Assembly: GCA_038046645.1 (NCBI GenBank)
Contig: JBBSVU010000002.1
Span: forward strand, 1 to 34,894
DNA length: 34,894 nucleotides
From: an archaeon
Lineage (GTDB): Archaea > Iainarchaeota > Iainarchaeia > Iainarchaeales > 0-14-0-20-34-12
Reading direction: 5' to 3'
In this document: in pieces, positions 12,405 to 25,517 of the stretch
Layout of the letters: each line of letters opens with the position of its first letter
How positions within the stretch are numbered: position 1 is the stretch's first letter
Position numbers and translations under genes: made by a program
Notes under the pieces: model-generated
What the model saw: the letters and a program-made list of their open reading frames with translations, nothing else
Databases searched by the model: none
Told to the model about the DNA's origin: nothing

Positions 12405-13171
12405 TCAAACCCTTACATCAATATTTTTTGATTTTAAATATTCCTTAACCTGTTTAATCGAATACTTTCCATAATGAAAAATGCTTGCTGCAAGAACAGC
12501 ATCTGCCTTGCCAAGCATAATAACTTCTGCCAAATCCTGCAAAGTGCCACAGCCACCAGAGGCTATTACCGGAATATTTGAATTTTCAGATATTTTCTTT
12601 GTCAGTTCTATATCATATCCTGTTTTTGTGCCATCTTTTCCGATTGATGTTAAAAGAATTTCCCCAGCACCTAATTCTTCCGCTTTTTCGCCCAGTTTTC
12701 AGTAATCAAAATTGTTTCAGTTTTACCGGCAGATGCAAAAACCTTGTTTAAATTATTTACCTTGTTTGAATCAATTGCAACAACGCAGGCCTGCCTTCCA
12801 AACTGATTGCTGATTTCAGAAATTAATTTTGGGTTTTTAATTGCAGCAGTGTTTATTGCCACTTTATCTGCGCCATTTTTGAATAATCTTTCTGCATCCT
12901 TTATTGTCTTAATGCCACCTCCAACAGTCAAAGGTATGAATACCTTTTGGCTTACTTTTCTGACTGTTGAAATCATGGTTTTTCTGCTTTCAACAGTAGC
13001 GCCAATATCTAAAAAGCAGAGCTCATCCGCTCCCTGTAAATAATATTGTTCAGCCAATCTTACAGGATCATTTACTATTCTGAGATTTTCAAAATTCCTA
13101 CCCTTGACTACCTTAATCTTGTTATTTATGATTGTGCAGTCCAAGCACGGAATTATTCTTTTTTTAAGCAT
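12405..13171 (-). CDS. hisF: Imidazole glycerol phosphate synthase cyclase subunit, interrupted by a one-base frameshift at ~12684-12688
   Basis: ORF 13171-12671 ([23 protein letters not shown]) stops early. The -1 frame continues [24 protein letters not shown]...IASGGCG...AASIFHYG...DVRV* (TGA 12407-12405). Span is 767 nt, one short of 256 codons. Confidence 0.92.
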
Positions 13172-16055: not shown

Positions 16056-17327
16056 TTATCTTGATTTTTTCAGCCTTAGAAGGGCAGCTTTTTTGTGCCC
16101 TTCTAGCCCTTCTATTTCTGCCAATTTGGCAGAAATCTTTGCCAATTCCTTTGAAGCTTTTTTTGAAACCTTCTGAAAACTAATCTTTTTGACAAAATCT
16201 TCAGTACTCAAGCCAGCACGATATTTTGCTGCTTGGTTTGTTGGCAAAACATGGTTTGTGCCAGAGCAATAATCTCCGAATGTCTCGCATGAATATTCAT
16301 CAATGAAAATTGCCCCAGCATTTTTTACCTTTGAGATAATATTTCTGCTGCCAAATATTTCCAAGTGCTCTGGCGAGAATTTATTTGCCAGTGCTATTGC
16401 CTGATTTTTATCTTCAACAAGAATAATTGCGCCATTCCTCAAAATTGACTTTGATGCAATTTCTTTTGTTGAAAGTTCTTGCAATTGCTTTGAAATTTCT
16501 GATTTAACTTTCTCAGCAAGCGCACGATTTGCCGTTAGCAATATTGCAGAGGCATTTTCATCGTGCTCTGCCTGCGCAAGAAGATCTGCCGCAATAAAAT
16601 CAGGCCTTCCTTTATCCGCAAGAACCATTATTTCTGTCGGGCCAGCAATAAAATCAATGCCGACAGAGCCATACACTAGTTTCTTGGCTGTGCTTACATA
16701 AATATTTCCCGGGCCAACAATCTTGTCAACTTTTTCTATTGATTGCGTGCCAAAAGCTAGGGCAGCAATTGCCTGAGCTCCTCCAATGCGATAAATCTCA
16801 GTTATTCCACAAAGATATGCTGCTACTAAAATTTCTTTTTTACTTGATGGGGGAACACACATTACAATTCTTTTTACGCCAGCGATTTTTGCAGGAATTG
16901 AATTCATCAGAACAGAACTTACTAATGGATATTTGCCGGCAGGCACATAAATTCCAACAGAATCTATTGGCTTAATTATTTCGCCAAAAACCATACCTTT
17001 ATTCAGCTTAATTTTCCATGGTTTTGGCTTTTGTTTTTTTGCAAAAAGTTCAATATTCTTTTTTGATTTTTTCAGGGCAGAAATAAATGACTTATCTGCG
17101 GAGAAATATGCCTTTCTGATCTCAGTTTTTGAGATTTTTAGGTTTTTTGCACTAAGTTTAAACTTATCAAACCGTTTTGAATATTCGAAAAGTGCTGAAT
17201 CGCCATTCTGTTTTACATTTGACAAAATTTCAGTAACTTTTGATTCGACATCAGCGTTGCTTTGCTGCCTTGACAATATTAACGATTCAAGAAATTGTTC
17301 TTGATCTCTTGTAATTATCCTAATCAT
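16056..17327 (-). CDS. hisD: Histidinol dehydrogenase
   Basis: GGAQAIAALAFGT, GPGNIYV, AGPTEI, QAEHD, PEHLE, GDYCSGTNHVLPT. Confidence 0.96.
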   Translation of the reverse strand: MIRIITRDQEQFLESLILSRQQSNADVESKVTEILSNVKQNGDSALFEYSKRFDKFKLSAKNLKISKTEIRKAYFSADKSFISALKKSKKNIELFAKKQKPKPWKIKLNKGMVFGEIIKPIDSVGIYVPAGKYPLVSSVLMNSIPAKIAGVKRIVMCVPPSSKKEILVAAYLCGITEIYRIGGAQAIAALAFGTQSIEKVDKIVGPGNIYVSTAKKLVYGSVGIDFIAGPTEIMVLADKGRPDFIAADLLAQAEHDENASAILLTANRALAEKVKSEISKQLQELSTKEIASKSILRNGAIILVEDKNQAIALANKFSPEHLEIFGSRNIISKVKNAGAIFIDEYSCETFGDYCSGTNHVLPTNQAAKYRAGLSTEDFVKKISFQKVSKKASKELAKISAKLAEIEGLEGHKKAALLRLKKSR

Positions 17328-17889
17328 AACCCTTACTCCCGATTAAAACAAAATCGCTGGAAAATATTGTTTCAGAAACATAAAGGCCTAGATTAAAAGC
17401 TGTTTTGCCTGTGCAAACAACATCAATGCAGGCTTCAGCCAAACCCTGTTTTACCGCTTGTTCTGTTTCTCCATTAAATAGCAGAATTTCAGGCCTTAAT
17501 GAATATTTTTTCTTAAAGTATTCTACCGCTAGCCTATAATACTTTTTATTTACTGCAAATTTAAGATAGGAAATATCAGATAAATTTCTGTTTTTTGGCA
17601 GCAGAACCGATAATGTCGGTTTCCTATATGCAAAATTAGGGTCATCCCAGGTTTCTTTTAGAATTAACTTAAGATTTGATTTTTTGTTTACTTTCAATAA
17701 GTATTCAGAATAGAGATCCTCACCAGTAATGCCTAAAACCAAGATATTTTTTAAGGAGAATTCTTCAATAAGTGCAGGAATATCTTCCCCCCTAAATGAA
17801 AGAAGTTCTGTCCTGCCAAGGTTTATTTCATTTTTTATCCTTTCAACTATTTGTTTAAAGCCTGTATTCTTAGGCACAAGGACCTTGAT
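17320..17889 (-). CDS. hisG: ATP phosphoribosyltransferase, short form, divergent; HisG-like sequence starts upstream of the first canonical start (GTG 17877)
   Basis: RGEDIP, GITGEDL, GETE...GLAEACIDVVCTGKT. The in-frame residues IKVLVPK (from 17889) resemble the HisG first strand (l.iAlPK). No C-terminal regulatory domain. Confidence 0.82.
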   Translation of the reverse strand: MKVLVPKNTGFKQIVERIKNEINLGRTELLSFRGEDIPALIEEFSLKNILVLGITGEDLYSEYLLKVNKKSNLKLILKETWDDPNFAYRKPTLSVLLPKNRNLSDISYLKFAVNKKYYRLAVEYFKKKYSLRPEILLFNGETEQAVKQGLAEACIDVVCTGKTAFNLGLYVSETIFSSDFVLIGSKGYD

Positions 17890-18002
17890 GAAGACAATCC
17901 CGTTCCTTAGCTAGTTTATTCAAATAGTCAGAGATGAAGACACTCACTTTGTGCATTTTCACTCATTTGGATTCCCTTTAGTGGGAAAAAAGTGGGATTC
18001 AT
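17870..18002 (-). promoter_or_regulatory. his operon leader with overlapping uORFs and two TGTCTTCATC (Cys-Leu-His) candidate +1 frameshift sites
   Basis: uORF1 runs from 18002 (or 17966) to 17928 and ends ECLHL*. uORF2, in the +1 frame, ends DCLHQGPCA* at 17870. hisG is +1 relative to uORF2. TTTAAA TATA-like box at 18033-18028. Confidence 0.65.
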
Positions 18003-18072
18003 AAGATAATAAATGCAGCATAACTGTTTTTAAATAGTGCTGTTACTTTCAGCAAAAAGGATAAGCAAAAAA

Positions 18073-18462
18073 TCAGTTAATTTTCTCAAAGCTTACTTTT
18101 ATTACTTCTTTCAGGTTTTTTAATTCTTTTTTTATTTTTTCAATGTCTGTCTTGTGGAAATCAGCAAGGATAGACCATACTGCCTCTTTTTTCCTTTTTA
18201 CGCTCCTTGACTCAGTATAAATCAAATCCACATTATTATTGGCGAGAATTTTTGCTACTTTGGACAATGACCCTGACTGGTCCTTCAGAGTTATCAAAAG
18301 TTTGCGGCCGGTTTTTTCAATAGGGAATAACAACAAGCGTTCATTTGTTTTATCAATTTCCAGGCAGATATTTTCCCCAGTTTTTATGCCCAAAGAGTCC
18401 CTAAACTGCTTTGGCAGCATTATTCTTCCTTTGGAATCTACCTTTATGTTTGTGCTGTCCAT
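18073..18462 (-). CDS. AbrB/MazE/SpoVT DNA-binding domain plus ACT domain protein
   Basis: KVDSKGRIMLPKQFRDSLGI (AbrB) followed by LKDQSGSLSKVAKILANNNVDL (ACT); alternative start 18489. Confidence 0.85.
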   Translation of the reverse strand: MDSTNIKVDSKGRIMLPKQFRDSLGIKTGENICLEIDKTNERLLLFPIEKTGRKLLITLKDQSGSLSKVAKILANNNVDLIYTESRSVKRKKEAVWSILADFHKTDIEKIKKELKNLKEVIKVSFEKIN

Positions 18463-18475
18463 ATTAAGCCATAAT

Positions 18476-19849
18476 TTATTTGCGTACAATATTCCTTTTT
18501 GGAATATAAATTATCTGGAAGTCCATTACATTTGTGCCTGTATGCCCTGTGATAATTTCATCGCCTAAAATCTTGAAAAAATGGTTTGAATCATTATTCT
18601 CTAAATAATCGCGATAATCCAAACTTAATTTTTGGGCTCTTTGCATTGTTTTTGTGTCAACAATAGCACCAGCAGCTTTGCTGAACCCGTCAATTCCGTC
18701 AGAACCGAATGAGCCAAGCACTGCATCCATATGCGCAATCTTGCCTGTTGTGCCTAATGCAACCTCCTGGTTTCTGCCGCCTTTACCATCGCCCTTTACT
18801 GTAACAGTGGTTTCACCGCCTGAAAGCAGGATGAAATCTTTTTTATACCTTTTTGCAAATTGGTCTGCTTCTATCAGTAATTTTAATCCTACAACCCTTG
18901 CTTCCCCCTCTATCTGGTTTGAATATATTTCACAATCCAGGCCATGTTCAAGCGCTTTAGAGCGCATTGCTGCAAGCGAAGCATAATTGTTAAGCAAAAT
19001 AATGTTAGTGACTTTTTCAAATATTTTATCATGTTCTTTTGGAGTTTCAGGGATTAACCCCTTTGCGCCCTTAAGAAGCCTTCTCTTTACTGTTGCCGGG
19101 GTTTTTCTCCATAACCAGAATTTCTTCAAATACTCAATGGCTTTTCTGTATTGGCTGCCGTCAGGAGCTGTCGGCCCAGAAGCTATAACATCAAGTTTAT
19201 CGCCGACAACATCAGAAATAATTAAGCTGACTAAAGTAGCTGGATGAACTGCTTTTGCAAGCAATCCCCCCTTTATTTGGGAAAGATGCTTTCTTATGCA
19301 ATTGATGTACTGAATTCTCATATCCGATTTTAAGAATAAGCGGTTCATGTTGATTAGGTCCTGCAAGGAAATGCCTTCAGCTGGCAGAATCATTAAGCTT
19401 GAACCACCTCCGGAAATTAAGCAGATAATCAAATCGTCCTTAGTTGCTTTCTTTGCAATCCTCATTATTTGTTTTGTCCCTTCCAATGATGTTTGATTAG
19501 GTATTGGGTGTCCGGCTTTAATTACGCGAATATTGCCATACCTTGCATCCCTTACTGAATTAATCCAGCCTTCCTTTATTCTATCCCCGATAATATCCTT
19601 TAATGCCTTTGCCATCTTCCATGCGGCTTTTCCAGCACCTATTACATAAGTATCCTTATATTTTGAAAGATCAAATTGCTTATCTGTTATTTTCAGAATA
19701 TTGCCTTCAAGCGATATTTTTTCCTTCATTAATTTGTCAGTATCTATTGTAGCTAGAGTTTCTTCAATTAAATCAAGAACTATCTTTCTTTCTCTTATGT
19801 AATAAGGGGAATTTTCAAGAAGCATCTGATAATTCTTTATTTTATGCAT
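18476..19849 (-). CDS. Glycerate 2-kinase (DUF4147/MOFRL family)
   Basis: GAGKAA, AGHPIP, ISGGGSSL, SDVVGD, IASGPT, GGETTV, GGRNQE, DGIDG, TGTNVMD; alternative start 19864. Confidence 0.93.
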   Translation of the reverse strand: MHKIKNYQMLLENSPYYIRERKIVLDLIEETLATIDTDKLMKEKISLEGNILKITDKQFDLSKYKDTYVIGAGKAAWKMAKALKDIIGDRIKEGWINSVRDARYGNIRVIKAGHPIPNQTSLEGTKQIMRIAKKATKDDLIICLISGGGSSLMILPAEGISLQDLINMNRLFLKSDMRIQYINCIRKHLSQIKGGLLAKAVHPATLVSLIISDVVGDKLDVIASGPTAPDGSQYRKAIEYLKKFWLWRKTPATVKRRLLKGAKGLIPETPKEHDKIFEKVTNIILLNNYASLAAMRSKALEHGLDCEIYSNQIEGEARVVGLKLLIEADQFAKRYKKDFILLSGGETTVTVKGDGKGGRNQEVALGTTGKIAHMDAVLGSFGSDGIDGFSKAAGAIVDTKTMQRAQKLSLDYRDYLENNDSNHFFKILGDEIITGHTGTNVMDFQIIYIPKRNIVRK

Positions 19850-21487: not shown

Positions 21488-21770
21488 AGTAACACAAAGT
21501 AAAGAGCAAAACATTATTATTCTTTTCAGAAGTGAATTCAAGATATTTGTCCGCATTCGGCAAGAGCCTAATTTTTCTGGTTTGAATTTTGGAATTTTTC
21601 ATCAGGAAAAAGTTAATTTTATGTACTTCAAGCCAAGCTTTATAAATAAGAAGGACATACTAAATATGTTCTCAAATTTTTTCATTGAACTTATTCTCCT
21701 GACACATCTAAAGCGCAGACTAACTATTCTAAATGAGTATTATTTGAAATTGAAATCTTGGGGTGCCTGT

Positions 21771-24700
21771 ATGAAGAGTAAATTCGATTTTATCCAGAAA
21801 AGGGAAGGTAGGTTAGTGCCATTTGATAAGGAAAAGATAATTAATGCTGTGTTCGCGGCAGCAAGGGCTGCTGGCGGCAGTGACAGAAAATTAGCTGAGA
21901 AGCTTGCTGACCAGGTTGTTTCCCATCTAAATAGGAATATTAAGCAAAAGTACCCGACAGTTGAGCAGATACAGGATTCTGTCGAGCGAATTTTAATTGA
22001 GGAAGGGCATGCAAGGACAGCAAAAGCATATATTTCCTACAGGCAAAAAAGGACAGAGGTAAGGTCTGAGAAAGCGCAGGTTCTGCAGAAGGAAAGGATT
22101 GATGAAGTAGACAAATGCTTTGATTTGAATGCATTGAAGGTTTTGACATCAAGATATTTACGAAAGGATGAATCAGGAAAATTGGTTGAATGCCCGAAGG
22201 AATTATTTACTAGGGTAGCAGTCCATACTGCCTTGCCAGATCTTTTATATGATACAGTTGTTTTTAGCAAAGTCCCTAACCAGAGGAAAAACGGGCACGA
22301 AAAATTTATCCCAGCAAAATACGAAGGAAAAATTTTCATAGGGAAATATGAATTGAATAAGCATCATCTTGAGGGTTTGAAAAGAACCTATGATAGGATG
22401 GCTTCAAAAGGGCACATGAAAATTTCCTGGAAAAAGTTTTTTGACATGCTTTCAAAAAGGAAATTTGAGAAATATGAAAAAACAATTGACGCTTTCTACA
22501 ACCTGATGGTTTCAAAGAAATTTTTGCCTAATACCCCGGCTTTGGCTAATTTTGGCAATCCTTTAGGAATGGGTTCTGCTTGTTTTGTTTTAGATATTGA
22601 TGATTCAATGGAAGAAATCATGGAAACTCTGAAGAAAACCGCATTAGTGTTTAAGGCAGGCGGAGGCATGGGCTATAATTTCTCAAAATTAAGGCCAGAA
22701 GGTGATTTTGTATCTAGCACGCATGGCTTAGCTTCAGGCCCTCTTAGCTTTATGCGCCTTTTTGACACAATGACTGAGGTGATAAAACAAGGGGGAATAA
22801 GAAGAGGCGCCAATATGGGCATTTTGAACAGCAATCATCCAGACATTGAAAACTTTGTAAAGGCAAAAGAAGGAAATAAGGCATTGAAAAATTTTAATAT
22901 TTCTGTAATGCTGATGGATGATTTTTGGGAATGTTACAGGAAGAATAAACCTTATCCTTTATTGAACCCGAGAAGTGGAAAGGTAATGAGAACAATTGAT
23001 GCAAAAAATTTGTTTGACATTATTGTGCACCAGGCATGGGAATCTGCCGAGCCAGGAGTAATCTATTTTGACAATGTAAATAAGTACAACCCATTGCTTG
23101 AAGGATTGGGGCCAATATATTCTACTAATCCTTGCGTTAGTGCAGACACATTAATTCCAACAGCAAAGGGTCTGGAAAGGATTGATTCTATTAAAGCAAG
23201 CAGTATTGTAGTGGATTCAAGAATCCTTAACCAAAATAAGGATAATGTTACTTTACAATTAGGGACAATGGCAGCTGAGCATTTGCAGGCAATTAAAACA
23301 GGGATAAAGGAAACATATAAGATTACTACTAATTCAGGCTATGAATTAATTGCAACCCCTGATCATAGAATAATGACAACCAATGGCTGGAAACCATTGA
23401 TTGAATTGTCAACAGAGGACGAACTGCTTATTCAAAGTGGGGAAGGTTTGTTTAACAGCAATGCTGCTTTGCCCTTTGTGGTTGAAAACAAGCATATTGG
23501 AAAAAACGGCAGGGAATATTCATTTAATCTTCCAACTCAATGGGATTACCATTTAGGATTAGTGCTAGGTTGGCTCACTGGGGATGGCTGGTTTAATAAA
23601 AAATATAATCAAGCAGGTTTTGTATTCTCTAAAGAAGATAAACTTGCAATGGACATAATAAAGCCAATACTTGAAAAGTATTTTAATGGAGTAACGGTCA
23701 TGAACCAAGCAAATGGCTGCATTCAGCTTAGGAGCAATAGCAGATATGTATCAGACTATTTAAACCAATTAGGGCTGAAATCATTCCCTGAAGAAAAAGA
23801 AGTGCCATCTGCATTATTTACTGCAACAAAGGAAGCAATACTTGGATTTTTAAGTGGCTTATTCTCAAGTGATGGAACTGTTGCATTAGGCTCAAAAAGC
23901 AGAAACTATATAAGGTTAAATTCAAGTTCAGTGAAATTATTGAAACAAGTGCAGCTCCTGTTGCTTAACTTAGGAATAAGAACAAGTATTTATGACAGGT
24001 CAACAAAATCAAAATGTTTCAAATACACATCAAGCAAAGGGGAAGAAAAAATATACAAAACTAGCGGGATTAATTATGAGCTTAATATAAGCAAGGAAAA
24101 CCTTGCTAGATTTATTGGCTTAATAGGTCTTATCAATAGCAATAAGAGCCAAAAGATGGATAAGCTTAAAGAATTTGAATTTTATAAAGAAACATTTACT
24201 GATGCTATTGAGTCAATTGAATATGCAGGAATGAGGGAAGTATGGGATATCACAGAACCATTAACGCATTCCTTTATAGCAAACGGAATTTTAGTTCATA
24301 ATTGTGGTGAGGTTTTGCTTTACCCGAATGAATCATGCAATTTAGGCAGCATAAATATTTGGGCTTTTTGCAAAGAGGATAAAAATGCAAAATTGCATTT
24401 TGACTGGGATGGTTTGAAAGAAACCATAATTTTGGCATCCCATTTTTTGGATAATGTTATAGACATCAACAAATTCCCGTTAAAAGAAATTGAAGAAATG
24501 TCACTGAATACAAGAAAGATTGGGTTAGGTGTAATGGGAGTAGCTGATGCAATGTTTGAAATGGACATTCCTTATGACAACCCAAAAGGCAGGGCGTTCA
24601 TGGAGCAATTGATGGAATTTATCAATTATTATTCTAAGGTGCAATCAATAGATAATGGCAAAAAAAAGGGAAAATTCCCCTTTTACCACAAGAGTTTCTA

Positions 24701-25517
24701 CTCAAAAGGAAAGCTGCCTTTCAAAGGGATTGAGGAAAAGAAAAGCTGGCACTTTGACTGGAATAAGCTGGCAAAAGATATCAAGAAACATGGATTAAGG
24801 AATAGTTTTACTACCGTAATCGCGCCAACAGGCAGTATTTCAATGATTGCCGGTTGCTCCTCAGGGATAGAACCTATGTATAGTTTAGTATTTGAAAAGA
24901 ATGTAAAGGTCGGAAGTTTCTATTATGTGAATAGGGTCCTGGAAAAAAGGCTTAGCGAAGAAGGATTGTTTGATGATCTTCTTGTTGAAGATGTCGTGAA
25001 ATGCAATGGGAGTGTGCAAACGATTGGATATATTCCCCCTAGAATAAAAAATGTGTTTGTAACCTCTCATGATATTGTTGCTGAAGACCATATCCGGGCT
25101 TTGGCTTCATTCCAAAAATGGACTGACTCAAGCATTTCTAAAACAATTAATTTCCCTGCTGATGTCAGTCTGGAAGAGATGGAAAAATCATATGTATTGG
25201 CACACGATTTAGGCTGCAAGGATGTTACAGTATATAGAGACAGTTCACTGAAGGAACAGGTTTTGATCACAAAGAAAAGGGAAAGAAAAGGAAGCTCTTA
25301 TGAATTAACGGCAGAATCAGCAAAACCTGATTCTGAATATATAGTTGTTGGCCCTGCAAATGTTCCGGAGAATTCAGCTGCTGCAAATAATGACAATGGG
25401 CACCATTCAAGTAACATGAATGTGAAAAAATGCCCGAATGATGGCACAGTCCTAATAAAAAAAGAGGGCTGCACAGTCTGCCCGGTTTGTGGTTATGGCC
25501 TTTGCTCAAATGATTAA
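21771..25517 (+). CDS. nrdJ: Adenosylcobalamin-dependent (class II) ribonucleotide reductase with N-terminal ATP cone and an intein
   Basis: ATP cone (KREGRLVPFDKEKI, VEQIQDSVE), PNTP, SACFV, GGGMG, QGGIRRGANM, TNP|CGE, CNLGSIN, IAPTGSIS, C-terminal C-x2...CTVCPVCG. Confidence 0.95.
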   Translation: MKSKFDFIQKREGRLVPFDKEKIINAVFAAARAAGGSDRKLAEKLADQVVSHLNRNIKQKYPTVEQIQDSVERILIEEGHARTAKAYISYRQKRTEVRSEKAQVLQKERIDEVDKCFDLNALKVLTSRYLRKDESGKLVECPKELFTRVAVHTALPDLLYDTVVFSKVPNQRKNGHEKFIPAKYEGKIFIGKYELNKHHLEGLKRTYDRMASKGHMKISWKKFFDMLSKRKFEKYEKTIDAFYNLMVSKKFLPNTPALANFGNPLGMGSACFVLDIDDSMEEIMETLKKTALVFKAGGGMGYNFSKLRPEGDFVSSTHGLASGPLSFMRLFDTMTEVIKQGGIRRGANMGILNSNHPDIENFVKAKEGNKALKNFNISVMLMDDFWECYRKNKPYPLLNPRSGKVMRTIDAKNLFDIIVHQAWESAEPGVIYFDNVNKYNPLLEGLGPIYSTNPCVSADTLIPTAKGLERIDSIKASSIVVDSRILNQNKDNVTLQLGTMAAEHLQAIKTGIKETYKITTNSGYELIATPDHRIMTTNGWKPLIELSTEDELLIQSGEGLFNSNAALPFVVENKHIGKNGREYSFNLPTQWDYHLGLVLGWLTGDGWFNKKYNQAGFVFSKEDKLAMDIIKPILEKYFNGVTVMNQANGCIQLRSNSRYVSDYLNQLGLKSFPEEKEVPSALFTATKEAILGFLSGLFSSDGTVALGSKSRNYIRLNSSSVKLLKQVQLLLLNLGIRTSIYDRSTKSKCFKYTSSKGEEKIYKTSGINYELNISKENLARFIGLIGLINSNKSQKMDKLKEFEFYKETFTDAIESIEYAGMREVWDITEPLTHSFIANGILVHNCGEVLLYPNESCNLGSINIWAFCKEDKNAKLHFDWDGLKETIILASHFLDNVIDINKFPLKEIEEMSLNTRKIGLGVMGVADAMFEMDIPYDNPKGRAFMEQLMEFINYYSKVQSIDNGKKKGKFPFYHKSFYSKGKLPFKGIEEKKSWHFDWNKLAKDIKKHGLRNSFTTVIAPTGSISMIAGCSSGIEPMYSLVFEKNVKVGSFYYVNRVLEKRLSEEGLFDDLLVEDVVKCNGSVQTIGYIPPRIKNVFVTSHDIVAEDHIRALASFQKWTDSSISKTINFPADVSLEEMEKSYVLAHDLGCKDVTVYRDSSLKEQVLITKKRERKGSSYELTAESAKPDSEYIVVGPANVPENSAAANNDNGHHSSNMNVKKCPNDGTVLIKKEGCTVCPVCGYGLCSND
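23133..24302 (+). mobile_element. Intein (390 aa) with LAGLIDADG homing endonuclease
   Basis: Starts CVSADT after STNP; block B ATPDHRI; LAGLIDADG motifs LGWLTGDGW and LSGLFSSDG; ends VWDITEP...ANGILVHN, followed by Cys. Confidence 0.95.

Follow-up and report, generated by a model that had tools for sequence, protein, structure and literature searches.

The window, a contig stretch of 34,894 nt from an archaeon of the Iainarchaeota, carries on its minus strand a histidine biosynthesis operon whose hisG is preceded by a leader with three successive reading frames. The features of this leader and its surroundings, in the direction of reading, are:

18073-18489, minus strand: gene with AbrB/SpoVT and ACT domains (Pfam ACT and MazE/AbrB-type domains, NCBIfam AbrB family), directly 5' of the leader
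18029-18034, minus strand: TATA-like box TTTAAA, 32 nt 5' of ATG 18002
17981-18002, minus strand: conserved 22-nt box ATGAATCCCAC-N6-CCCAC, covering the predicted mRNA 5' end and codons 1-7 of uORF1 (MNPTFFP)
17928-18002, minus strand: uORF1, 24 codons plus TGA (17930-17928), MNPTFFPLKGIQMSENAQSECLHL, ending ...SECLHL
17870-17962, minus strand: uORF2, the middle (+1) frame, open from 17962, stop TAA 17872-17870
17934-17948, minus strand: site 1, with SD-like AGTGAG 17948-17943, spacer TGT, P-site CTT 17939-17937 and A-site His codon CAT 17936-17934
17911-17913, minus strand: TAG shutting the hisG frame 5', with no ATG, GTG or TTG from there to GTG 17877
17888-17902, minus strand: site 2, with SD-like CGGGAT 17902-17897, spacer TGT, P-site CTT 17893-17891 and A-site His codon CAT 17890-17888
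17320-17892, minus strand: short-form hisG as it would be read after the shift, F-IKVLVPKNTG... to TAG 17322-17320

The HisG product (about 190 aa) matches PF01634 in Pfam (E 5.8e-16) and has no HisG_C, i.e. it possesses the catalytic domain without the C-terminal regulatory domain, as is characteristic of short-form HisG-S. Its TIGR00070 score of 59.6 bits, below the cut-off of 75.75, marks it as divergent. In the AlphaFold model (pLDDT 89.6) strand 1 comprises residues 2-7, IKVLVP, so that site 2 leads into the first beta-strand of HisG, as a previous sequence-only reading of this DNA had claimed; a start at GTG 17877 would delete most of that strand. Downstream, HisD, HisC and IGPD are recognised by Pfam, and the end of hisG overlaps the hisD ATG at 17327 by 8 nt. 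On the other side of the leader, a blastp homologue of the AbrB-ACT protein is directly adjacent in 17 of the 17 leader variants (see below) with enough upstream sequence, and this protein may act as an amino-acid-binding regulator of his operon transcription.

The 10-mer TGTCTTCATC occurs on the minus strand at 17942-17933 and 17896-17887 and has no third copy in the window, in which 0.08 matches are expected and none of 100 shuffles reaches two. The copies lie 46 nt apart, a distance of 3n+1, and the repeat lengthens to 18 nt with 83% identity. Both contain CTT-C, that is, a P-site CUU followed by a base that would allow tRNA-Leu to re-pair in +1, and at site 1 the take-off codon is not followed by a stop. 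The middle frame reads ...VSVFISDYLNKLAKERDCLHQGPCA* and has GTG 17962, ATG 17956 and GTG 17947 as possible starts of its own. The hisG frame does not open before 17910 and reads LRNGIVFIKVLVPKNTG; the +1 frame from TTC 17892 in site 2 is HisG. The tandem CUU-CAU motifs, their three frames and a hisG frame closed by a TAG with no ATG, GTG or TTG before GTG 17877 had all been described in the sequence-only reading, and each was found at those positions.

Nineteen distinct leader variants of the Iainarchaeota (Diapherotrites, DPANN) share this three-frame layout, among them a same-genus genome (G001) and one whose HisG is only 43% identical (G002). Each variant has a presumably leaderless mini-ORF (MNPTFFP...) with a site, a +1-frame spacer ORF with the same motif and a his gene one more +1 step away, and both sites are composed of an SD-like hexamer, N3, NUU and CAY. 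Since the first 22 nt were held constant in the pattern search, the sample of these box-type leaders is biased; chance matches were dropped, namely three of 16 genome loci (L045, L048 and L051) and 11 of 22 metagenome loci, mostly one Bacteroidetes coding gene. Site 1 is in frame with the 5' ATG in all 19 variants (NTTCAY at offsets 33, 36, 39 and 63, all 0 mod 3), and site 2 is always in +1 to it, at offsets 76, 91, 94, 100, 103, 109, 202 and 262. In all variants the long his ORF lies in frame +2, and frame-blind scoring found the longest ORF there in 18 of 19; in the exception, L060, the longest is the next gene, with hisE still in +2. CUU-CAU-type +1 junctions, which the sequence-only reading had suggested looking for in orthologous loci, are thus conserved, with their frame relations kept over eight spacing classes.

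All 38 A-site codons of the box-type leaders specify His (CAT 29, CAC 9; at site 1 CAT 13, CAC 6), and the P-site codons are CTT (29), ATT (5), GTT (3) and CTC (1, from a variant with a TTG start), always followed by the C of CAY. Between the sites the spacer frame has no stop in any of the 19 variants, in accordance with the open middle frame claimed for the window (shuffling gives P 0.2-0.6 per variant), and the other two frames have stops in 19 and 17 of the 19. Just after site 2, the his frame contains synonymous changes (CTT to TTA, CCT to CCC, ACA to ACC to ACT, GAT to GAC, TCA to TCT). Among the variants listed, AGT is the only Ser codon used within the SD-like hexamer, which points to a constraint at the nucleotide level. 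Every leader found precedes a his biosynthesis gene, either hisG or hisE.

Seven of the 19 variants (the window, G001, G002, L073 and three hisE-type leaders) have no ATG, GTG or TTG in the open his frame before site 2, and 12 have a GTG or TTG 3-10 codons before the junction. uORF2 has its own GTG or ATG in 18 variants, the GTG lying inside the SD-like hexamer; L073 has no canonical start for uORF2 either. In two of the three hisE-type leaders (L016 and L060) a TAG stands directly before the entry codon TTC, so that entry by initiation is hard to see there, and the codons that follow (ACA AAA...) are not near-cognate starts. The match to the PRA-PH profile (positions 4-86 of 86) starts at residue 11 of the hisE-type ORF, whose first canonical start lies deep inside the domain. 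The missing HisG start to which the sequence-only reading had drawn attention is thus repeated in other leaders, and several lineages have a stop directly ahead in the target frame. Two non-canonical starts were considered and rejected: ATT 17898, since the matching ATT or ATC is directly followed by TAG in L016 and L060, and the AUC after the His codon, since the hisE types, G021, G172 and G177 have ACA or ACT at this position.

A HisG profile survey of the order found this hisG in 35 of 196 genomes. The 5' region was readable in 29, leaving out G146 (contig end), G155 (masked N), G144, G156, G167 and G094; the junctions of L091, L097, L105, L108, L109 and L112 were read by eye, and L105 and L109 were also rescored. 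A CAY codon in the -1 frame is present at the hisG junction in 29 of 29. Three families (f20, f24 and f10) have a single junction, its CAY inside a uORF led by an SD and ATG. No canonical start precedes strand 1 in eight of the 29 loci, and in G148, G149, G151 and G172 a TAG stands directly before the entry codon; 21 of the 29 genomes have a GTG or TTG before the junction, at 3-10 codons or, in f10, further away, up to 28 codons before the P of PKN. In f10 the hisG-frame extension from junction to PKN (18-30 codons) has no stops in the eight loci scored, the other frames having 0-4. Most families have the SD-like element 3 nt upstream, f10 has it 6 nt upstream, and a prfB-like geometry is therefore not universal. 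Long-form HisG genes of the same order, which have the feedback domain, possess an ordinary SD and ATG and no such junction in three of three cases; a phylum-wide HisG search of 19 more genomes yielded no further short-form hisG. The lack of the device in the long-form genes fits the proposal of the sequence-only reading that the leader device might replace the allosteric feedback lacking in short HisG.

The leader sequences also bear on how translation may start. In 18 variants a TTTAWA precedes the leader ATG, at -28 to -32, and its genome-wide peak lies at -32 to -27 from the ATGs of long ORFs, a spacing that points to a leaderless his transcript. ATG 18002, one of two uORF1 starts considered in the sequence-only reading, is the conserved one and lies 32 nt below TTTAAA; the other, ATG 17966, is not. 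Other families of the order carry the 22-nt box with 91-100% identity over 22-35 nt, and G172 keeps it without ATG and in another frame, which makes a DNA or RNA role, for example as an operator, likelier than a role of the peptide. Its interpretation as a tRNA 3' fragment or att site was rejected, as ARAGORN found no tRNA in the 14 loci with the box.

The 16S 3' end of the genome is GGATCACCTCCT, and the genome uses GGTGA-N4-ATG, as seen in a GGTG peak at -9 of ATGs. Predicted duplexes with this 16S end amount to -3.9 kcal/mol at site 1 and -3.8 kcal/mol at site 2. Anti-SD pairing reaches -3.8 kcal/mol or better at 38 of 38 leader sites, and about 17% of 155 control in-frame NTT-CAY sites reach -4 or better. 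The tRNA-Leu(GAG) that the sequence-only reading invoked is encoded in the genome, and tRNA-His(GUG) has one gene. In the look for HisZ, the HisRS paralogue that partners short-form HisG, PF13393 gave a single match, a 441-aa open frame, presumably that of HisRS itself (genome 89% complete). A scan for the site motif across genome G000 gave 10 matches, close to a rough chance estimate, and no second relay of sites.

Rfam detected neither RF00514 nor any other match in the leader at E <= 1, save a chance snoRNA match far below its gathering score, and no terminator-like site or hairpin is present in 17750-18150. Without such a site and without a run of cognate codons, an attenuator of hisL type was rejected. 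MFE folds of the 19 leaders have no common fold and no usable covariation; in some of them the 5' AUGAAUCCC is paired with site 2, and in others the SD-like hexamer lies in a small hairpin. An aromatic leader elsewhere in the window genome is a classical mini-ORF with an F/Y/W run, its DAHP synthase having its own ATG, and is not a device of the his type.

From this anatomy we infer that the his leader is probably a histidine sensor, working by programmed +1 frameshifting of the prfB/Ty1 kind that depends on His-tRNA. All elements of the sequence-only reading find support in the comparisons, and none of the results speaks against it. The his mRNA would be leaderless, ribosomes loading on the 5'-terminal AUG (18002) and reading uORF1 until CUU occupies the P site and CAU the A site, with the SD-like hexamer 3 nt upstream, abutting the E-site codon, as a putative stimulator. 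When His-tRNA is plentiful, CAU would be decoded and translation would terminate two codons on with no downstream product. When charged tRNA-His is scarce, the A site would stay empty and peptidyl-tRNA-Leu(GAG) could re-pair from CUU to UUC, exchanging G34:U for G34:C; Ile-tRNA would then read AUC and translation would go on in the +1 frame. Fifteen codons later the motif repeats, and a second +1 shift would lead into hisG at F-IKVLVPK, with hisD and later genes made via coupling at overlapping stops and starts. The HisG so produced is predicted to bear a variable N-terminal extension of about 37 aa in the window, longer in L019 and L021.

The components of this model differ in strength. That +1 recoding takes place at the junction into the his gene is likely and, given recoding, its dependence on His is very likely. 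Serial use of both sites in the window genome is as likely as not; in 18 of 19 variants uORF2 has a GTG or ATG of its own, and other families of the order make do with a single junction. Hungry-codon shifting in bacteria, from Gallant's work, reportedly usually amounts to a few per cent, and at such a rate two shifts in series would yield very little. Re-pairing would also be imperfect, with a first-position mismatch, for the P-site codons AUU, GUU and GCC. A GTG or TTG near the junction in 12 of 19 variants and 21 of 29 genomes, together with the uORF2 GTG inside the hexamer, means that ordinary initiation could serve and that the hexamer may simply be a start region. We also give even odds to the broader proposition for the Iainarchaeota, in which his biosynthesis would be switched on by a natural hungry-codon +1 shift at NUU-CAY into hisG or hisE, the two sites of box-type leaders forming a multiplicative gate on a leaderless mRNA that replaces the feedback domain missing from short HisG.

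The GTG codons raise the possibility that uORF1, uORF2 and hisG are initiated separately by termination and reinitiation, at the GTG of the hexamer, a TTG or a non-canonical codon, with stalls at His codons occluding or exposing the next start and with no change of frame. A GTG three codons before the entry codon, which 18 of 19 variants possess at site 1 and many possess at site 2, would suit this explanation, as would an ATGA stop/start overlap between two leader ORFs of G021 and the position of the SD-like hexamer where a start region would be in a genome using GGTGA-N4-ATG. We nevertheless regard it as unlikely, because seven of 19 variants and eight of 29 genomes offer no canonical start, a stop stands directly before the entry codon in L016, L060, G172, G151, G148 and G149, and the codons after entry (ACA...) in the hisE-type leaders and G172 are not near-cognate starts. 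It also leaves the need for an open spacer frame unexplained, and stalling at the His codon would place the ribosome over the GTG 10 nt upstream, so that starvation would lower expression unless a double-negative scheme is assumed.

Recoding might, on the other hand, be constitutive, with a fixed efficiency giving a low, unregulated level of HisG and with a His codon that is slow for reasons other than supply. The anatomy would be the same as under dependence on His, and prfB-type sites can shift efficiently without starvation. Against this, the A-site codon is one for His without exception, in 38 of 38 box-type sites and in each of the 29 hisG junctions surveyed, the use of both CAT and CAC indicates that the amino acid matters and not a rare codon, and each leader found precedes hisG or hisE; constitutive recoding is therefore improbable.

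It is more improbable still that the repeat is a signal in DNA or for bypassing, i.e. a pair of operator half-sites for the AbrB-ACT protein, or the ends of a 46-nt hop of the T4 gene 60 type that joins MHKVSVF to IKVLVPK. In its favour, the two copies agree at all 10 nt in this genome and change together from genus to genus (TGTCTTCATC as against TTTACTTCAYC), the leader always has the AbrB-ACT gene as its neighbour, and a hop would give a neat HisG N-terminus. However, neither a hop nor an operator needs an open frame, and the intervening frame is open over 43-226 nt in 19 of 19 variants; in many variants the copies differ outside NTTCAY, families f20, f24 and f10 have a single junction, and an operator would not explain the missing start codons. 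A bypass of gene 60 type was rejected, for although matched codons are present, no stop follows the take-off codon and the gap is open throughout.

That the leader is an assembly error or part of a decaying pseudogene in the window genome has a negligible probability: hisF of the same operon does have a frame break of 1 nt (12684-12688), located in an A5 run and absent in four relatives, so that errors or decay are conceivable for this genome alone, but the leader is identical in contigs of four DNA runs from three studies, the architecture is kept across families whose HisG is 31-43% identical to that of the window, and the his frame has substitutions of synonymous type right after the junction. 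Over the part of 17650-18150 that each contig spans, no substitution and no indel is seen; X6 and X3, the latter possibly the source sample, span all of it, X7 spans 17776-18063 and X8 17650-17993. This comparison excludes an assembly error at the leader, which the sequence-only reading had proposed to check by mapping reads. Of the 16 runs listed with this sequence, none is an RNA run.

Should frameshifting dependent on His-tRNA prove true, it would constitute a purely translational amino-acid sensor for archaea, a group in which we know of no attenuators, and would reveal a new way for a cell to sense amino-acid shortage in tiny groundwater archaea. It would mean that leaderless operons can be regulated after initiation, and annotators would have to consider that a "start-less" gene at the head of an operon may be recoded and not broken. 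Regulatory +1 frameshifting is known from release factor 2, antizyme and the Ty elements, and amino-acid sensing by leader peptides from bacterial attenuation. Our literature search found no published description of a His-sensing frameshift device, and with no published case found, a conserved device that joins the two principles appears not to have been described before. A 2016 recoding review states that for starvation-specific trans-frame proteins "no examples are known" (PMC5009743), and the abstract and passages of a 2021 review on archaeal recoding mention one -1 case and no +1 case (PMC8211752).

The leader resembles the enterobacterial hisL (RF00514) in that a short ORF with His codons lies before hisG and would report charged tRNA-His by way of the ribosome. 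It differs in having one or two His codons (one per mini-ORF) compared to a run of seven, it has no Rfam match and no terminator hairpin, and its output would be a change of frame and not transcription termination. In the eukaryotic antizyme (OAZ), which regulates its pathway, polyamine acts on a +1 frameshift at a stop codon, with a pseudoknot and the nascent peptide as stimulators. Here, too, a metabolite-responsive +1 frameshift would control a pathway, but the signal would be the supply of aminoacyl-tRNA.

The closest parallel in mechanism is the autoregulatory +1 frameshift of bacterial prfB, encoding RF2 (reviewed in PMC5009743). Shared with it are a P-site CUU with a base permitting +1 re-pairing, an SD-like element 3 nt upstream, a short zero-frame product and, as proposed, an output that answers to the abundance of the factor reading the A-site codon. 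In contrast to the CUU-UGA-C of prfB, where UGA is read by RF2, the A site at 38 of 38 sites contains a sense codon, for His, that a tRNA decodes; moreover, the host is an archaeon, two sites stand in series, the product is a biosynthetic enzyme and not a decoding factor, and the SD-like element is of GGUGAU type and 6 nt away in f10. The device would hence work like prfB, but is not a member of the prfB family. With Ty1, ABP140 and EST3 of yeast (CUU-AGG-C; PMC5009743) it shares a CUU-XXX-C heptamer and, as proposed, a slip of tRNA-Leu while a sense A-site codon awaits a scarce tRNA. In yeast, however, scarcity stems from a fixed low tRNA gene dosage, whereas in the his leader it would come from a physiological drop in charged tRNA-His, and the element lies in a prokaryotic leader and not at a retroelement gag-pol junction. 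The likeness to the hungry-codon frameshifting of Gallant and co-workers in E. coli (PMC5009743) would lie in an empty A site at a starved codon that lets the P-site tRNA shift; what is known only as an error or laboratory phenomenon would be a conserved and selected regulatory device in the Iainarchaeota.

The 10-mer TGTCTTCATC occurs twice in the his leader on the minus strand, at 17942-17933 and 17896-17887, as the sequence-only reading had reported (two matches in a search of the whole window, against 0.08 expected). The copies are spaced by 46 nt, and the repeat can be extended to 18 nt with 83% identity. Translation of all three frames reproduced the earlier three-frame reading of this leader:

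ATG 18002 to TGA 17930-17928, minus strand: uORF1, the mini-ORF, with a translation ending in ...SECLHL and stop
minus strand: the middle (+1) frame, uORF2, with a translation ending in ...VSVFISDYLNKLAKERDCLHQGPCA and stop
from 17910, minus strand: the HisG frame, open in translation only from here, after a TAG at 17913-17911
18073-18489, minus strand: a gene with AbrB/SpoVT and ACT domains, directly upstream of the leader

The HisG frame was described as having this upstream TAG and no start before GTG 17877, and translation of the window gave the same result, with no ATG, GTG or TTG in the open frame ahead of that codon. AlphaFold modelling of this HisG (pLDDT 89.6, pTM 0.84, 15-sequence alignment) places residues 2-7 (IKVLVP) in the predicted first beta strand, most of which would be lost with a start at GTG 17877. 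According to Pfam the ORFs encode short-form HisG, HisD, a HisC-HAD fusion and IGPD, and farther downstream HisH, a HisF-like protein and a fusion with His_biosynth, PRA-CH and PRA-PH domains. Elsewhere in the window, a ribonucleotide reductase ORF of 1311 aa (21582-25517, plus strand) appears to contain an intein-like insert.

The leader was compared by blastn with 196 genomes of the order; in several other families, identity over the first 22-35 nt amounts to 91-100%. Further leaders came from pattern scans of genome and metagenome collections, in which the first 22 nt were fixed by the search pattern and chance matches were dropped (3 of 16 genome loci, 11 of 22 metagenome loci). Nineteen distinct variants are known in this way, 16 ahead of hisG and three ahead of hisE. 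uORF1 begins with MNPT(F/L)(F/Y/I)P in all of them, and TTTAWA stands 28-32 nt upstream of its ATG in the 18 variants with sufficient upstream sequence. Site 1, composed of an SD-like hexamer, 3 nt, an NUU codon and a CAY codon read in the uORF1 frame, is present in 19 of 19, as is a zero-frame stop 1-7 codons past the His codon; site 2 has the same form in the +1 frame, again in all 19, and the his gene lies one further +1 step away. Sites and ORF frames were located frame-blind: the offsets of site 1 from the ATG (33, 36, 39, 63) are all 0 mod 3, those of site 2 (76, 91, 94, 100, 103, 109, 202, 262) are all 1 mod 3, and the longest ORF is in frame 2 in 18 variants (in L060 the longest is the next gene, hisE itself being in frame 2). 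The A-site codon is His at all 38 sites (CAT 29, CAC 9) and the P-site codon is CTT (29), ATT (5), GTT (3) or CTC (1); the CTC-CAT of variant L014, which possesses a TTG start, is the only non-slippery site. The Ser codon of the hexamer is AGT throughout the listed variants, which would argue for a constraint on the RNA rather than on the peptide.

Seven of the 19 variants offer no ATG, GTG or TTG in the his frame between the last upstream stop and site 2: the window, G001 of the same genus, G002 of another genus, the three hisE-type leaders and the metagenome leader L073. In L073 the spacer ORF is start-less too, so that the 5' ATG is the sole canonical start. In the hisE-type leaders L016 and L060 a TAG directly precedes the entry codon TTC, which rules out a neighbouring ATT or ATC as start; the codons next in frame (ACA AAA ...) do not qualify as near-cognate starts. 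The hisE ORF aligns from its residue 11 with positions 4-86 of the 86 of the PRA-PH profile, and its first canonical start lies far within that domain. Past site 2, relatives differ in the his frame by synonymous-type changes (CTT->TTA, CCT->CCC, ACA->ACC->ACT, GAT->GAC, TCA->TCT), which suggests that this frame is translated from the junction onward. What the hisE-type leaders (L016 of G047, L060, L068) precede is a hisE-hisI operon rather than hisG, and behind it lies an ORF that has HisG_C but, of the HisG domain, just the C-terminal half; a hisE-type genome also encodes a long-form HisG elsewhere, in a gene that starts normally.

A HisG profile search found short-form hisG in 35 of the 196 genomes, and its phylum-wide extension yielded no additional such gene. 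For 29 of these 35 genomes the hisG 5' region was read; G146 (contig end), G155 (masked) and four more were left out. At the junction, the -1 frame shows a CAY codon in 29 of 29, so the comparison with related archaea proposed earlier found the His codon at the frame break in every readable locus. Families f20 and f24 have a single SD+ATG-led mini-ORF (MNS... or MNT...), an SD-like-N3-CUU-CAY site and hisG in +1. Family f10 has an SD+ATG mini-ORF of the type MNGK...S(D/E)xxLAHQH and variants, with a GCC- or NUU-CAT-C junction; its SD-like hexamer lies 6 nt upstream, versus 3 in the others, and the 3-nt spacing is thus not universal. The f10 HisG extension comprises 18-30 codons, the hisG frame being stop-free in 8 of 8 scored loci. 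The three long-form HisG genes of the order, so classed by their length (290-294 aa) and taken as a control, have a plain SD+ATG and no such junction. In f10 (L098-L106) the gene upstream of the mini-ORF, possibly HisRS, ends like a class II aminoacyl-tRNA synthetase C-terminal domain, and the N-terminus of HisG is extended by a conserved stretch, (P/F)I(N/D)xxT(D/N)FI..., absent in other families. In four f20 and f24 loci (L096, L102, L111, L101) the site motif also occurs on its own, in the stretch that separates a tRNA gene from the mini-ORF SD; one example, AGTGAT-TTAGTTC-ATCACT, is a perfect 6-bp hairpin.

Several explanations other than a frameshift switch can be considered. On the one hand, the frames could form a relay of separately initiated ORFs: a GTG in the hexamer or a TTG nearby is a possible uORF2 start in 18 of 19 variants, and GTG or TTG a possible his gene start in 12 of 19 variants and 21 of 29 genomes. 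A relay fails where the start is absent, however, and eight of the 29 genomes have no canonical start ahead of strand 1, with a TAG immediately before the entry codon in G148, G149, G151 and G172; its regulatory sign is also wrong unless it is elaborated. Alternatively, the +1 shift might be constitutive, which leaves both the universal His codon and the exclusive link to his genes unexplained. A translational hop or an operator repeat leaves the open spacer frame unaccounted for: the +1 frame is stop-free in 19 of 19 variants, and the other two frames are stopped in 19 and 17 of 19. The probability of no stop under shuffling is 0.2-0.6 per variant, and jointly about 1e-5 if some 11 lineages are taken as independent, an independence that is only partial.

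A sequence error or pseudogene is contradicted by contigs from four DNA runs of three studies, identical over 17650-18150 with no indel wherever covered, and by the architecture conserved in 19 variants; the assembly indel suspected at the frame breaks is absent from all four. G001 has the identical repeat at the same 46-nt spacing, and G002, with a HisG 43% identical, has TTTACTTCAYC at 52 nt. In favour of error, the HisF-like gene (within 12408-13171, minus strand) is interrupted at 12684-12688, where its frame breaks by 1 nt in the A5 run of GCG AAA AAG CGG, and is unbroken in four relatives (G001, G002, G126, G129). The frame would be rejoined by one extra A or by slipping -1 on G_AAA_AAG; the break may reflect slippage, a mutation of recent date or an error in sequencing.

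On comparative grounds (conserved sites, frames and missing starts), the His-sensing +1 frameshift switch into hisG proposed earlier is the best-supported explanation, and more likely than not the right one. The 16S rRNA of this genome ends 3' in GGATCACCTCCT. Upstream of the ATG of 735 long ORFs, GGTG is most frequent at position -9 and GTGA at -8; together they form GGTGA-N4-ATG, which indicates that the genome uses SD initiation. For TTTAWA the maximum in the same ORFs falls at -32 to -27, indicating that leaderless genes are frequent, and the TTTAAA of the his leader has its first base at -32 relative to ATG 18002. Predicted anti-SD pairing reaches -3.8 kcal/mol or better at 38 of 38 box-type sites, which are homologous and not independent; of the 155 in-frame NTT-CAY sites taken from ORFs of this genome as controls, about 17% reach -4 or better. 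The duplex at the leader sites would leave 3 nt to the P-site codon and adjoin the E-site codon, and the SD duplex of prfB ends at the same distance. ARAGORN, run with introns, found one tRNA-His(GUG) and the tRNA-Leu(GAG) earlier said to re-pair on UUC, an event argued here from base-pairing rules. On an NUU codon read by a GAN anticodon, a +1 shift would replace the G34:U wobble by G34:C and keep A35:U, and by the same rules the first position would become a wobble for CUU and a mismatch for AUU and GUU. Little product would be expected from two inefficient shifts in a row, and HisG made across the frames would have an N-terminal extension that varies.

The AbrB-ACT gene lies directly upstream in 17 of the 17 variants with enough upstream sequence for a blastp match. 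The 22-nt box is kept in G172, where the ATG is absent and the frame is another, and a DNA or RNA role therefore explains its conservation better. We infer that the invariant CCCAC-N6-CCCAC box (17981-18002, at the predicted transcription start) is a candidate AbrB-ACT operator, which would add a second, transcriptional layer of histidine control. The 5' end AUGAAUCCC (17997-18002) is complementary to the UUCAU shift site and to GGGAUU, the hexamer of site 2 (17888-17902) in start-less lineages, and pairs with site 2 elements in the MFE folds of several variants (L018, L016, L068). This pairing could be a gate on the 5' AUG or on site 2, or could be coincidental, CAU being the complement of AUG. 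Beyond the window, contig C2 of the same genome has a classical aromatic leader mini-ORF with an F/Y/W run at its end (about 37,700-37,800, minus strand), and the DAHP synthase behind it has its own ATG; leader ORFs seem to be used on more than one amino-acid operon in this genome.

A full-text literature search, with subscription journals outside its range, found no published description of such a device. For trans-frame products specific to starvation, the accessible text of one review states that 'no examples are known' (PMC5009743), and that of another article gives a single -1 case as the only archaeal programmed frameshift (PMC8211752). The proposed device would work like the +1 sites of prfB and Ty1, would follow the hungry-codon logic of Gallant's starvation experiments and would have the same physiological role as the enterobacterial his attenuator. 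It belongs to none of these families, because its A-site codon is a sense His codon, in contrast to prfB, the leader has no Rfam match and no terminator, and, unlike the attenuator, it is without a run of His codons. If confirmed, it would be both a novel form of regulatory +1 frameshifting and a novel mode of controlling an amino-acid operon.
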